Below, piece after piece: positions 892-5,825 of a DNA stretch of 64,000 nt. Every line of letters begins with the position of its first letter. Position 1 is the first letter of the stretch. This DNA is from Microthyrium microscopicum (lineage: Eukaryota). A program made the translations under genes and the position numbers. The stretch spans positions 2,970,401 through 3,034,400 of the forward strand of contig MU004231.1 of NCBI GenBank assembly GCA_010405405.1, given 5' to 3'. The notes beneath the pieces were generated by a model. That model did no database searches. It worked only from the letters and a program-made list of their open reading frames with translations, and was not told where the DNA came from.

Positions 892-2425
892 ACTCTTGGG
901 ACCGTCACTGGGAAAACTAGCAGGTACAAGTGAATAGAGTCTCAGCGTGATGGTTGGTGCCCCAAGATAGGTAGAATTTTGACAGCAGCTTGTCCCCATT
1001 TGGGTACAAGCGTCTGCACCTGACTATATCAACTAGGCTACTGACAAAATAAGAACTCGCGATCCATGGTTGATCTAAAATTTCGCTACAGCATGGTCGA
1101 GTTTATGCTCCTTCCAAGGTTGTCACTAGTTGAGGAGGACTTGATTATCTGGGGACTTCAATAGCAGTAGAAGGAACCTGTCTTAGCGCTGAGCATAAGT
1201 TCAGTATCAACCCGCACCTTCTAACTTTGAACGGTACCTCATCACGCGCACTAGTTGTCATCACCAGTCCACCGCAACATAAAGCAGCATCTACCGACAT
1301 CAGGTAGCTCCAGAGATCATGGATACCGCAAGGGCCATAAAATCACAACAACGGAAAGCCTGCGTTAGAGCCCAAGCAATTTGACGATAATTTTGACATG
1401 GGCAATTTTGTTCCAATAGCTGAAGCTCGAGTCATATCTCTGAAGTTGCAGACCATGCTCTTTGGAATTCCATATCCCAAGCACTAAATGCTAGTAGCAA
1501 TAACCTTTAAAAATTACTTTAGAGTATGTAGAGTTGGACGTCGCAAGTCTGCCTGAACAGCTCGTCACTGCATCATATAATCAAAATAGTTTTGTAAAAT
1601 ATACCTTCTTGTCGACTGTTCAATTCTTTCCAGTAGCAGTCAGGCTCTATAGTTATTTAGGTCTACTAAATCTTGAAATGCTGAAATTATTCCAAATTAT
1701 GCGTTGCAGAGCTGAACCATTTACATTAGCCAGACAAGCAACACCTCCAGCCTGATGGCAACAATACCACTATTCCAAGAGCAACCGTAAGCGATCTGGA
1801 CAACTTTCAGGGTTTCAAAATAGTGAAAACTATTTCTAGTGACCATTTTTCTTCTAATCAATGATGGAAGTTTTAAAAGAAAATAGTTTGACTGATGTAC
1901 ATGTTCAAGTGCGGTTGGATTCTTGAAGTAAACCGTGGTTGCGCAATAGAATATTGCGCTAAGCTGGATATGGCAGGCATAGCAATCGTACATCAAGGAT
2001 TTTGTTTAAATAATCAAGAATTGGTTGGAATCTGGTACGCTACTGAGTGAGTCAGCAAAATACAGAAGCATGTGGCCGAAAAGGGATAGGTAAAACGTCA
2101 CTTCTAAGTTTGCACTGGAGATGCGGCAATTTTGACAAGCGTTTTCTCCCGCAAACCATTACTTCAAGTAACCTCTCGCCCACCTCACCTCTCAACTCCC
2201 AATTGAAGCAGTCAATTGCATTACCGGTGATAACTTTAACATCCAATAGCGACCAGCTGTTTCATTGTTATATTCAGATCTGTAAATTTCTGTATCAAGC
2301 GTCTATTTGACCTGCTCTTGTGCTCTCTACGCTGTTCCTTCACGATACCTAGACGCCACTCCCAGAAATTTCCTGCAGACGCCACTATCCCAACCTCTCC
2401 CCTCACTGACCGTCATTCTCTACGG

Positions 2426-2956
2426 ATGATTGATTCAGTCAATTTCTAATTGGAAACTTATTCCAACATATATTCCGCCTTCCATGCGTCGGGAAGATTT
2501 GGTACGCTTTCTGTCCAAGCCAGCTAAGTACGCAATCTCAACACTGGTAGAAGAATCATGCTAATCCGTCATAGGCCCAGATAACACCTCTTGCACCGCT
2601 TTTCATCTCTCAACTCTCACCTCTGGTTCATTGAATAGCAGAGAACCTTATCTGCTGGACCGATACTGCCTACGGTATCGGCGCTATCAGATCGGGTCAC
2701 TCCGTTCTGCCAACATTTCGTTTCTAAAGCACGTTTTTCTCCCACTCTCGGCTCGCCCTCCTTAACGGGTCGATTACCTTTTGAAAATCTATCAACTCAG
2801 TTTGGTCTGTACCTGGAATTGTGGGCCTTCTCTTCTTGGACGAGCACCGCATTGGTCGTCTGGAGGTAGACAGTGCTTCACTTCGTCAACCTCGGCCTTT
2901 TCTTATAAAGCCAAACAATTGTCTCCCACCAGCTTATAGAAAGCGTTTTCTTGGAG
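2426..2956 (+). promoter_or_regulatory. Long SAM decarboxylase 5' leader with intron (2502-2574), uORFs and hairpin
   Basis: GTACGC...GCTAAT...TAG intron; uATGs at 2426 and 2484; no ATG from 2575 to 2956; 9-bp hairpin 2660-2681; ATT-started frame 2715-2765 ending CCT CCT TAA. Confidence 0.65.
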
Positions 2957-4564
2957 ATGGTGAATATTGAGATTCCCAAAACCTCTGCTGCACCTTCCAG
3001 CCCGTACTTCGGTACGCCGCATTTAACCATCAATCGTGATGCGACCATCGATCTTGATTCCAGTAATGCATTTGAAGGTAATCATACATTCTTTGAGCTA
3101 GGAACTGGGTGCTGATCTTCTTTAGGTCCTGAGAAGTTGCTAGAGGTCTGGTTCAGTCCATCCGAAAGTGAACTCCCAGAGTCATGCGCTCCGAACGGCC
3201 TCAAGTCCGTTCGTCCAGAGACATGGACTGAAATGCTAGACCTTGTTCACTGCAAGGTTTTGTCCATTGTCGAGTCTGAGCATGTCGATGCCTACCTTCT
3301 TTCGGAGTCCAGCATGTTTGTCTTTCCGCATAAACTTGTCTTGAAAACTTGTGGTACCACAACTTTGCTCTATGGGCTTCCGCGTTTGCTGGAAATCGCT
3401 GCCCTCTCAGCCGGATTCCCACATGCCAAGCCGGATCTCAATGCTGCCAGACCCGCTGCTGCTGCGCCATATCGAGTCTTTTATAGCCGAAAGAACTTCT
3501 TGTATCCCAATCAGCAGCGTGGACCTCACAAGAGCTGGACTGACGAAGTCCGATTTTTGGATCAATTGTTTGTTGGTGGAAGCGCCTACATGATAGGCAA
3601 GATGAATGGAGAGCATTGGTACCTCTACATCACTGCACCACACACGGAGTTGACTCCTCCGGTTTCGCCAATTGACCTAGATGATGAAGAACACACCCAA
3701 ACCAAATTCCTCAGTCTTCCAAAAGAAGGGGAGGCGTTGATGCAAGCTAATCACGAGGAAGACGAGACTCTGGAGATCTTAATGACTGATCTCGATGAGA
3801 AGAATGCTCGCCAATTCTATCTCGAGGACGCGAGTGCGGTCGCGGAAGGTCGTTTTCTTCAAAAAGCTCGCGAGGCTCGCAAGAATGCTGTCAATAGTCT
3901 TGGCACCATTCAAGATGCTGGACAGTTTAATGCTGCTGTCCTTGACGATGCTACATTTGATGTCTTTGGCCAGAATTCCGACCATAGCGATATCTCTGGC
4001 TCTGATGACGAATTCACTGTTCCGGAAGAGCTGTCCACTGAAGGCCATACCCTCGGCACCGTTGTCTCCGAGTCTTGTGGTCTCTCTGACGTCTACTCTT
4101 TGAACAAGTACCCGGACGCTCGCGTGGATGCTTACCTTTTCACACCATGCGGATTCTCTGCTAACGGAGTTATTCCTGCACCACCAGGATCCCCAGGATG
4201 CGATGGTAAAGCCACCCATTACTTCACTGTCCATGTTACACCAGAACCACAGTGCAGCTATGCTTCTTTCGAGACCAATGTTCCTGCTCGTCAGTCTGGC
4301 CGCGAAACTGCCGATATCATTGAACAAGTCGTCAAGATCTTCAAACCTGGTCGATTCTCCGTGACTTTGTTCGAAGGCAAACAGAGCGAAGATGGTGCGA
4401 TCACTGCGGCCAAGAAGAACAAACGTATGGATGCAATTGAGGGCTACAAACGTGTTGAACGTATCGTCCAGGAATTGGATGGATATGAGCTCGTGTTTCG
4501 ATACTATGAGCGTTGCGATTGGAAAGGAGGAGCTCCACCACGACTGGGAGAAATTGTGTTCTAG
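2957..4564 (+). CDS. SPE2: S-adenosylmethionine decarboxylase proenzyme
   Basis: ATG 2957, intron 3078-3125 joins AFEG-PEKLLEVWF; autocleavage motif YLLSESSMFV, LKTCGTT, FTPCGFSAN, HVTPEP..SYASFETN. Confidence 0.97.
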
Positions 4565-5825
4565 ACAGCGCTGGAAAGGCAAAAGTTGTACGAAATCTAT
4601 TCCCCATGGGAAAGATATATTACGGTTGCCGACTAATGTTTATACGGCCTCTAATGATTGTGCTTCTGTCCATATGGTCTTTAGGAAAACAAGGCGTTGT
4701 TAGGTAAAATAAAATATTGGTCCATCTGCCTCTGTTAATTTTTGTGTGCACAGTTATGTGTTTGGATATGTGTCGTCGATGACTAGAGATAATCCACACT
4801 TGCCATTGCCTGCAGGCAGAAGTACCATGTCTGGTGTCGACAGAGCGCGAGCGTTGAAGAATGTGAAGGTATAGATTACTGATTTGCATGCTCACGCTGA
4901 TGTGGGGAGAATTGGTTTGACGGTTGCGGATGAAGAGCGGAAGGTGTTGGATGAGGGGAAGCATTATGTTTGATATGGGCCAGTTATTTTGTCCATCGGT
5001 TGGTTGTCTTGTCGATGTTGAGAATGTTGAGCTTATGAGTACTAATGCTTAATGTCATGATCAATCTGATATTTAATGTTGCAACGTAATCGTGATATCG
5101 TCTGCTTTTCTTTGACACACGAACACATGTCCCATTCTCCTGATTCCTGAAGCACGTATCCTCTGTTTGCCATGGTCCTCGCTGCATCCTCAAGCCGTAG
5201 TCATAGTAGATAGAACAGAAAACCGGTCCGATCAGATTAATAATCGAGTCTGTACCTCTTTGTACTGTTCTCAACTTTTCCATATTCTCGAGATCAAGTG
5301 GAGATGGAGACGGGAGCAAGCGTCCGCACGTCATCCACACGCTGCATTCCTAGCACACGACCTTCACAACGACATCGGTACTTGGCAGGACGATTGCTGG
5401 GGAAGTAGAGTGATAAATCAGTGAGGAGTCAGGATAAAGATGGCTGCAGAGTATTGGCCACATCCGGGGAAAAGCAAGGGCAAAGGGAGTAAACGGGGGA
5501 GATCGGCTGCAAATTTACGTCAGAAACGTAATTGGCCATGCAGGTTTTGACTGGTCTATCTCCGAGTCTTGGCGCTGTCTAGCTTTTTTGGTCAGGGTCT
5601 GAAATCACTTTGCAGCATCTGCATTTGCATCACTGCACAAGACCATCACTCTCTCTCCTCAACAAACAATCCTCAAAATCCTTATCGCCCACAACCCTCC
5701 TTTCCAGCATTCGAAAATATCAATCCGCTTTTTCAGAATATAAACCTTTCAACAGCCTCGCGCGAACAGTCTCAAATAGACTGCCTTCCCTCTACAGCAC
5801 GATTGCGCGTTTTACCACATAAGCC

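Follow-up and report, generated by a model that had tools for sequence, protein, structure and literature searches.

The question raised by the leader of the S-adenosylmethionine (SAM) decarboxylase gene of Microthyrium microscopicum is whether scanning ribosomes meet a second conserved frame between the published upstream open reading frame (uORF) and the main AUG, and whether that frame is translated from a codon other than AUG. The gene lies in a window of 64,000 nucleotides (nt), by which we mean the whole stretch of DNA that was analysed (assembly GCA_010405405.1, contig MU004231.1, positions 2,970,401 to 3,034,400 of the forward strand), and all positions given here are those of the window. 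SAM decarboxylase (AdoMetDC or SAMDC in the sources cited) is a rate-limiting step in spermidine synthesis, where it commits SAM to polyamines, and translational feedback on it is a textbook case in mammals and plants. The original prediction, made from the letters of the window, had proposed a uORF that is initiated by AUU and ends in Arg-Pro-Pro-stop. We call the published AUG frame uORF1 and the AUU frame uORF2. The way in which uORF2 is conserved across related leaders supports it well as a selected, AUU-initiated coding uORF. The frame and its initiation context are the following.

2709..2714, forward strand: initiation context GCCAAC (A at -3, C at -4, G at -6), read from the sequence and conserved among unique leaders.
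2715..2765, forward strand: uORF2, AUU-initiated, ISFLKHVFLPLSARPP-TAA, 16 sense codons and a stop with C at +4, defined by translation and cross-leader conservation.

The codons of uORF2 are ATT (2715-2717), TCG, TTT, CTA, AAG, CAC, GTT, TTT, CTC, CCA, CTC, TCG, GCT, CGC, CCT, CCT and TAA (2763-2765), giving the peptide I-SFLKHVFLPLSARPP-stop. The ATT frame, its GCCAAC context and the Arg-Pro-Pro-stop end were therefore present letter for letter as predicted, and the distance to the main ATG, put at about 190 nt, was measured as 191 nt from the uORF2 stop to the SAM decarboxylase ATG (2957). The frame begins 130 nt past the end of uORF1 and is out of frame with it. The surrounding stretch is AUG-free, as had been claimed, but its length is not the 380 nt given: it covers 396 genomic bases (2561-2956), the last upstream ATG (2558-2560) being located in the intron of uORF1, and in the spliced message it runs for 423 nt from the uORF1 ATG (2484). 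The claim that the frame is open through this intron to 2450 did not hold because a genomic TAA at 2562-2564, inside the intron, breaks it. Once the 47-nt intron is spliced out, no stop interrupts the frame as far back as about 2434, an openness which carries no weight since the hairpin region that precedes uORF2 is read in all three frames relative to Pro-Pro-stop across species.

Related leaders were gathered from a metagenome collection by means of a degenerate pattern drawn from the central part of uORF1; the scan returned at least 115 loci. Among the matches listed, we kept 62 loci in which the pattern is preceded by an ATG at 12 nt and the uORF1 peptide is encoded, and set aside the other 53, which were without that ATG and had unrelated flanking translations. 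The sample is independent of uORF2 because the loci were fetched by a uORF1 pattern. The uORF1 N-termini of these metagenome loci match the published forms of Onygenales, Eurotiales, Helotiales, Pleosporales, Capnodiales and Sordariales, which suggests a broad sample and is taken only as a sign of that breadth. A total of 39 loci, together with the window, extend into the main ORF and gave 35 different spacers. Counts for start, context, length and end refer to 45 unique contexts found without anchoring on ATT; codon-level counts refer to a set of 43 contexts gathered by a pattern requiring ATT, 38 of which belong to the 17-codon class.

With CCN-CCN-stop as the sole anchor, this word was found in all 35 unique spacers at 122-195 nt after the uORF1 stop, and only four other such words occur elsewhere in them. 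All 35 spacers end on I-[PS]-x-x-K-x-x-F-[IVL]-P-L-[SNR]-A-R-P-P-stop, and the peptides further upstream are unrelated. Among the 63 leaders (62 loci and the window), 53 contain the whole element, one (L099) is cut within its stop codon and nine end at most 122 nt after uORF1, before the place of uORF2. The frame was thus observed in 54 of 54 informative leaders, window included, and among the matches listed no leader with enough sequence was found to be without it. We noticed that the start is ATT in 43 contexts, ATA in two (L085 and L106) and ATC in none, while the internal codon for Ile-9 is ATT in 16 and ATC in 10 of 38 leaders. All three Ile codons are near-cognate starts.

The start context is highly conserved, with A at -3 and C at -4 in 45/45 contexts and G at -6 in 36/45, and conservation drops abruptly upstream of -6. 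Forty contexts encode 16 residues, three encode 15 and two encode 17. The end is RPP-stop in 44 and LPP-stop in one, so that CCN-CCN-stop is present in 45/45; in the 43-context set the stop was observed to be TAA in 42 and TAG in one, followed by C in 41. Spacing is more variable. The distance from the uORF1 stop to the ATT is 80-157 nt (mostly 120-135), that from the uORF2 stop to the main AUG is 162-336 nt, and 30 of the 35 unique spacers that separate uORF1 from the main ATG contain no ATG.

The variation within the frame is of the coding type. In the 38 leaders of the 17-codon class, columns at the first and second codon positions have mean entropies of 0.68 and 0.64 bits and those at the third position 1.28 bits, a significant third-position excess (Mann-Whitney p = 3.5e-4; paired Wilcoxon p = 4.3e-4). 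As an example, Arg-14 is encoded by CGA in 29 leaders, CGC in six, AGA in two and CGG in one. Pro-15 is CCT in 33 and CCC in five, Pro-16 is CCC in 21, CCA in 14, CCT in two and CCG in one, and the Ser, Leu and Ala positions likewise vary synonymously. The length of uORF2 changes by whole codons only, whereas neighbouring conserved blocks show 1-nt indels. Frame +0 has an internal stop in none of the 38 leaders, and its residue conservation is 0.76 compared with 0.53-0.67 in the other five frames. Antisense coding was rejected, as the antisense frame that would share this periodicity has a stop in 23 of 38 leaders. An RPP-stop conserved with synonymous variation is what the original prediction had expected an alignment of SPE2 (SAM decarboxylase) leaders across Pezizomycotina to reveal, and it was found together with a conserved start and context.

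The transcript and the gene downstream of uORF2 were delimited as follows.

2224..4800, forward strand: minimum transcript extent, from a 3058-nt contig of run X1 with 100% identity and two GT..AG skips.
2957..3077, forward strand: exon 1 of the coding sequence (MVNIEIPK...NAFEG), from the SAM decarboxylase translation and the spliced contig.
3078..3125, forward strand: intron of the coding sequence, 48 nt, from a contig skip of 48 (GT..AG, cut +2).
3126..4564, forward strand: exon 2 of the coding sequence (PEKLLEVWF... to the stop), from the SAM decarboxylase translation.

The coding sequence runs from the ATG at 2957 to a stop at 4564 on the forward strand. The type of run X1 is only guessed (possibly RNA), and its use here is limited to what its one contig bridges. 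We read this contig as spliced message because of its two exact GT..AG skips of intron size, one restoring the frame of the enzyme. It continues beyond 4800, and the leader has a minimum length of 733 genomic bases. The AUU frame is retained in the contig and no splice takes it out. The context of the main AUG is strong, with G at -3 in 35/35 unique leaders.

Further upstream, the window carries the conserved 17-codon AUG uORF that was described in Pezizomycotina AdoMetDC leaders with the consensus MSPKDLLRFLSKPAKPR (Ivanov, Atkins and Michael 2010, PMC2811004, supplementary Fig. 1A). Its Pleosporales form is given there as MRREDLVRFLSKPAKPR, and in the parts of that source available to us supplementary Fig. 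2 presents a single uORF, 405-441 bases from the main ORF, and no second frame. The peptide of uORF2 is unrelated to the published M-x-x-x-DL[LV]RFLSKPAKPR, and uORF2 lacks the AUG start that defines the published element. In the window, uORF1 is found as MRREDLVRFLSKPAKPR at 2484-2584, split by an intron, and a shorter AUG frame precedes it.

2426..2449, forward strand: 7-codon AUG uORF MIDSVNF-stop, inside the transcript contig and 58 nt before uORF1, its sequence not conserved.
2484..2527, forward strand: first part of uORF1, MRREDLVRFLSKPA and the first two bases of Lys-15, from translation and the published table.
2528..2574, forward strand: 47-nt intron of uORF1 (GTACGC...CATAG), from the contig joint 2527->2575 with GT..AG.
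2575..2584, forward strand: end of uORF1 once spliced, G-CCC-AGA-TAA, that is ...K-P-R-stop, from the spliced contig and identical to the published Pleosporales form.

The genomic text reads ATG (2484) and then MRREDLVRFLSKPAK, and departs from the published table at GT, the third base of the Lys-15 codon (2528). Unspliced, uORF1 of the window would read MRREDLVRFLSKPAKYAISTLVEESC-stop, 11 codons further; since the contig skips 2528-2574, spliced uORF1 is exactly the published peptide. An insert beginning with GT interrupts the frame after the second base of the Lys-15 codon in 59 of the 62 loci, and in most loci unspliced uORF1 stops at once (PAK-stop), so the conserved Pro-Arg-stop end exists only after splicing. 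The three uninterrupted loci (L036, L042 and L075) may be cDNA-derived contigs. The context of the uORF1 AUG is weak, with T at -3 in the window and T in 48 and C in four of 52 unique leaders. The GTACGC hexamer of the 5' splice site in use at 2528 occurs a second time at 2502-2507, in the Val-Arg codons of uORF1, and the single contig of run X1 uses only 2528. In the Neurospora crassa leader, two alternative 5' splice sites together with a single 3' site were reported (Li and Breaker 2017, PMC5640933). The uORF1 stop is followed by CAC or CAT (TAA-CAY) in almost all spacers, in the window at 2585-2587, so that both uORF stops have a conserved C after them. Some ATG within 200 nt upstream of uORF1 was observed in 35 of 57 unique leaders, several of these frames being short and located at about -55 to -68; no common peptide was found among them in the 57 leaders.

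The second published element of this leader is the SDC motif, a hairpin with a stem of about 11 base pairs (bp) upstream of fungal SAM decarboxylase genes (PMC5640933). Disruption of its stem raises reporter expression in N. crassa and compensatory changes bring repression back, while the hairpin has no effect on splicing and does not bind polyamines (PMC5640933). As far as the accessible text of the same source goes, it mentions two AUG uORFs near the splice sites and no AUU frame, and it leaves the mechanism of repression by the hairpin open. The window contains the motif directly before uORF2.

2641..2702, forward strand: extended hairpin, SDC motif, with an inner 9-bp stem 2660-2668/2673-2681, loop CCUA and outer helices 2645-2658/2684-2697, from the minimum free energy (MFE) fold.

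The hairpin at 2660-2681 matches the published description, and the MFE structure of 2640-2800 has z = -2.3. Its position relative to the AUU is nearly fixed. In the window the AUU lies 33 nt past the inner stem and 17 nt past the extended stem; across leaders, this distance is 32-36 nt from the inner stem in 30 of the 35 that have it and 16-20 nt from the outer helix in 26 of 28. The inner stem is absent in eight of 43 leaders, five of which keep the outer CCTCG/CGAGG helix. A group of five loci whose uORF1 starts with MSNK or MSNS (L007, L009, L051, L058 and L061) has lost the inner stem and keeps the outer CCTCG...CGAGG helix, the AUU frame and the spacing. In a structure written by hand, 79% of cells pair, compared with 33-38% with the partner slid. 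RNAalifold returned no structure on the 43-row alignment, in which rows without the inner stem are gapped there, and conservation of the stem sequence itself leaves little covariation. No Rfam family was found for the hairpin in a search of 2000-3300 at a permissive threshold, which gave two chance-level matches (U4, E = 1.5; SNORD95, E = 8.2). The original prediction was upheld in its comparative half, a selected AUU-initiated coding frame conserved across leaders, and had overlooked the published uORF1 and the SDC hairpin. The AUU frame follows both directly, and a mechanism must include them.

Conserved uORFs of polyamine genes generally carry a proline at the very end or adjacent to it. 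A penultimate proline occurs in AdoMetDC uORFs of many lineages, and the nematode ones end in YRRPP-stop (PMC2811004). Among these, the uORF MGPDRKTRILVLYRRPP-stop (PMC2811004, supplementary Fig. 1B) shares with uORF2 the gene family, the 17-codon class and the Arg-Pro-Pro-stop end, but it is AUG-initiated, is the only conserved uORF shown in those leaders and is unrelated in the remaining peptide; judged from the sequences, the likeness is probably convergent. The upstream conserved coding regions (uCCs) of ODC homologues are without AUG, have two adjacent prolines near the C-terminus and are 22-100 codons long (PMC2811004, PMC11550727). The AZIN1/ODC-homologue uCC (Ivanov et al. 2008) resembles uORF2 in being located in a polyamine-pathway leader, in having no AUG and a conserved near-cognate start (AUU in mammalian AZIN1) in good context, and in showing coding-type conservation that is strongest C-terminally, with two adjacent prolines. 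The outcome reported for it is a polyamine-dependent stall that represses the main ORF. It differs in several respects: uORF2 belongs to a SAM decarboxylase gene, shows no sequence likeness to it, has 15-17 sense codons rather than 22-100, ends in Pro-Pro-stop with no Trp (the ODC type being Pro-Pro-Trp-stop), stands behind another conserved uORF and a hairpin, and is too short from start to stall for a multi-ribosome queue.

The stalls at AZIN1 PPW and HOL1 PS-stop have been ascribed to polyamine interference with an assisting factor, which is printed as eIF5 and which we read as eIF5A (PMC11550727). Saccharomyces cerevisiae HOL1, for which impaired peptide release under high polyamine is the reported cause (PMC11550727), and the small uORFs of plant SAMDC also combine a polyamine-pathway leader with a conserved proline-containing end at the stop. 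These are AUG-initiated and end in Pro-Ser-stop, and the plant SAMDC uORF has 48-55 codons and is paired with a tiny overlapping uORF (PMC2811004). A Pro-Pro-UAA end is best documented in uORF2 of human cytomegalovirus (hCMV) gp48 (UL4), a short frame on which ribosomes are arrested at termination over Pro21-Pro22-UAA and bar the way to scanning ribosomes that had leaked past it (PMC4605324). This viral uORF is often bypassed by leaky scanning, and its two terminal prolines, which shut off release of the peptide, are essential for the stall that blocks scanning. Unlike uORF2 of the window it is viral, AUG-initiated and 22 codons long, it has no homology, and the accessible parts of the source state no small-molecule dependence for it. 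Within the same leader, uORF1 also has 17 codons and a proline near its end, but it is a separate element 130 nt upstream, with a weak-context AUG, a Pro-Arg-stop end and an intron. The SDC motif shares the leader as well and differs from uORF2 in being an RNA structure rather than a reading frame.

By analogy with the AZIN1/ODC uCCs, HOL1 and hCMV gp48 uORF2, we infer that uORF2 is translated, stalls, represses the main ORF and responds to polyamines. We consider it probable that uORF2 is a selected, weakly initiated frame whose Pro-Pro-stop end stalls ribosomes and thereby blocks scanning at high polyamine. Scanning ribosomes would meet, in order, the weak AUG of uORF1 with its Pro-Arg-stop, the hairpin, the AUU of uORF2 with Arg-Pro-Pro-UAA-C, about 200 AUG-free bases and the strong main AUG. 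The 40S complexes would leak past the weak uORF1 AUG or resume scanning after uORF1, and a small share of them would initiate at the AUU, a near-cognate codon made usable by its optimal context. After decoding the 16 codons, these ribosomes would halt at the UAA-C stop carrying peptidyl-Pro-Pro-tRNA, forming a roadblock to the scanning complexes that follow and reducing initiation at the main AUG 191 nt downstream. Formation of the Pro-Pro bond and release after proline need eIF5A, with which free polyamines interfere. High spermidine would then lengthen the stall and exert negative feedback on SAM decarboxylase.

The hairpin is probably part of the same device as uORF2. Its fixed spacing from the AUU invites the speculation that it helps the AUU, which would explain its repressor phenotype, and the N. 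crassa result fits a hairpin acting through translation. We tentatively hold it possible that the SDC hairpin and the AUU frame are one device which, together with uORF1, forms a two-stage, splicing-gated polyamine rheostat. The hairpin might re-form behind a scanning complex at the fixed 16-20 nt and hold it over a deliberately weak AUU, which would account for the higher N. crassa expression on stem breakage, and uORF1 would add a weak AUG, a Pro-Arg-stop and a C-terminus that exists only after splicing. We know of no description of such an architecture for any polyamine gene.

Several observations weigh against the proposed polyamine-responsive stall. Translation of uORF2 is read only from the mode of its conservation, and AUU is a weak start codon, as known from N. 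crassa work. The preference for ATT favours a start at the Ile codon but does not establish one, since all three Ile codons are near-cognate. The distance from the AUU to the stall site is 48 nt, with the P site of a stalled 80S ribosome 45-47 nt after the AUU. From usual footprint sizes, queued 43S complexes would be located roughly 15-20 nt after and 11-14 nt before the AUU and not on it, which makes queue-enhanced initiation of the AZIN1 type doubtful here. A plain scanning barrier could account for the effect of the hairpin as well. The uORF2 copy of the window differs from the majority at several inner residues, and its leader is without two downstream hairpins that are present in other leaders. 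The sample covers only uORF1-bearing leaders, and the number of independent lineages is below 45 since the 45 contexts are related by descent.

An alternative in which uORF2 is translated and repressive, but acts as a constitutive barrier or reinitiation trap while polyamines are sensed by uORF1 or otherwise, appears unlikely to us. In its favour, coding-type conservation shows selection on the peptide and not on the signal, uORF1 for its part combines a weak AUG context with a conserved Pro-Arg-stop, and the polyamine response of uORF2 is drawn by analogy. However, a mere barrier needs neither 16 conserved residues nor a near-cognate start, and in a leader of the polyamine pathway, an Arg-Pro-Pro-stop end that is invariant and followed by a conserved C at +4 resembles the ends of uORFs that are reported, or proposed, to be polyamine-responsive.

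It is improbable that the block is conserved as untranslated RNA, either as a protein-binding site or as part of a larger fold with the SDC hairpin. The leader does contain several conserved non-coding blocks and hairpins, and in the window the bases after the uORF2 stop can pair with codons 12-14. This pairing was not observed in the other loci, however, and an RNA element would account poorly for variation placed at third codon positions, for CGA/AGA changes at Arg and four-fold changes at Pro, Ser and Leu that preserve the residue, for length changes confined to whole codons while 1-nt indels are restricted to neighbouring blocks, and for an in-frame stop constantly at the same place.

Even less probable is that uORF2 is the end of a longer coding region, a uCC read from varied upstream near-cognate codons or by readthrough of uORF1. 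Followed back as far as uORF1, the uORF2 frame meets no stop in 26 of 43 leaders (7 and 6 in the two other frames), and in 24 of 43 the uORF1 stop lies in this same frame. We traced this asymmetry to two conserved TAG words, one located about 10 nt ahead of the ATT and the other in the hairpin arm, whereas the non-conserved 5' part is open in 30, 25 and 27 of 42 leaders for the three frames. Moreover, the frame of Pro-Pro-stop crosses the hairpin in three different registers, peptide conservation begins at the Ile, and uORF2 of the window is out of frame with uORF1. The longer uCC and uORF1 readthrough were rejected because the asymmetry derives from the conserved TAG words and the 5' part is equally open. 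A functionless chance ORF has a negligible probability: a lone 17-codon near-cognate frame is common in any leader and would be unremarkable in the window alone, but its presence at the homologous place in 54/54 informative leaders with start, context, length and end conserved is far beyond chance.

Other structures of the leader are located downstream of uORF2.

2821..2882, forward strand: second strongly conserved leader block, a pyrimidine tract GGGCCTTCTCTTC followed by a hairpin GACGAGCA/TTGGTCGTC with a G-G mismatch in the window.

This block lies 75-135 nt before the main AUG and was observed in nearly all 35 spacers; it is not coding, as relatives carry 1-nt indels. A small hairpin GCTGGC-(AAAA)-GCCAGC after CTGCT is found about 40-70 nt past the uORF2 stop in nearly all other spacers and has no counterpart in the window (about 2790-2815). 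Furthermore, folding predicts a short post-stop hairpin in about 30 of 41 leaders, within bases +2 to +22 counted from the uORF2 stop, with its 5' arm beginning inside the stop codon or immediately behind it. It takes the form AACGNCC...GGNCGTT or a variant built on another stem, and its mean z is modest (-0.9). In the window (2764-2785) this hairpin is weak, and the codon 12-14 pairing can form instead.

No AUU, non-AUG or second conserved uORF was found described for fungal SAM decarboxylase in the literature searchable in full text. The accessible parts of PMC2811004, PMC5640933, PMC5487733, PMC11550727, PMC12803844 and PMC4605324 mention no such frame. On this basis, uORF2 belongs to a known kind of element, the conserved near-cognate-initiated, proline-terminated regulatory uORF of a polyamine-pathway leader, and does not constitute a new mechanism.

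For filamentous fungi, the accessible record of this leader consisted of one AUG uORF (2010) and one repressive hairpin whose mechanism was left open (2017). In a well-studied leader, comparative scans that considered only AUG uORFs overlooked a major element. A non-AUG frame conserved as strongly as uORF1, located right behind the hairpin and closed by the Pro-Pro-stop that is the classic mark of arrest gives a concrete, testable mechanism for that hairpin, and N. crassa cell-free extracts and reporters already exist for exactly such a leader. The frame would also add an independent example of an AUU-initiated sensing uORF outside the ODC/AZIN family. In these fungi, uORF2 is very probably a second translational brake on polyamine synthesis.

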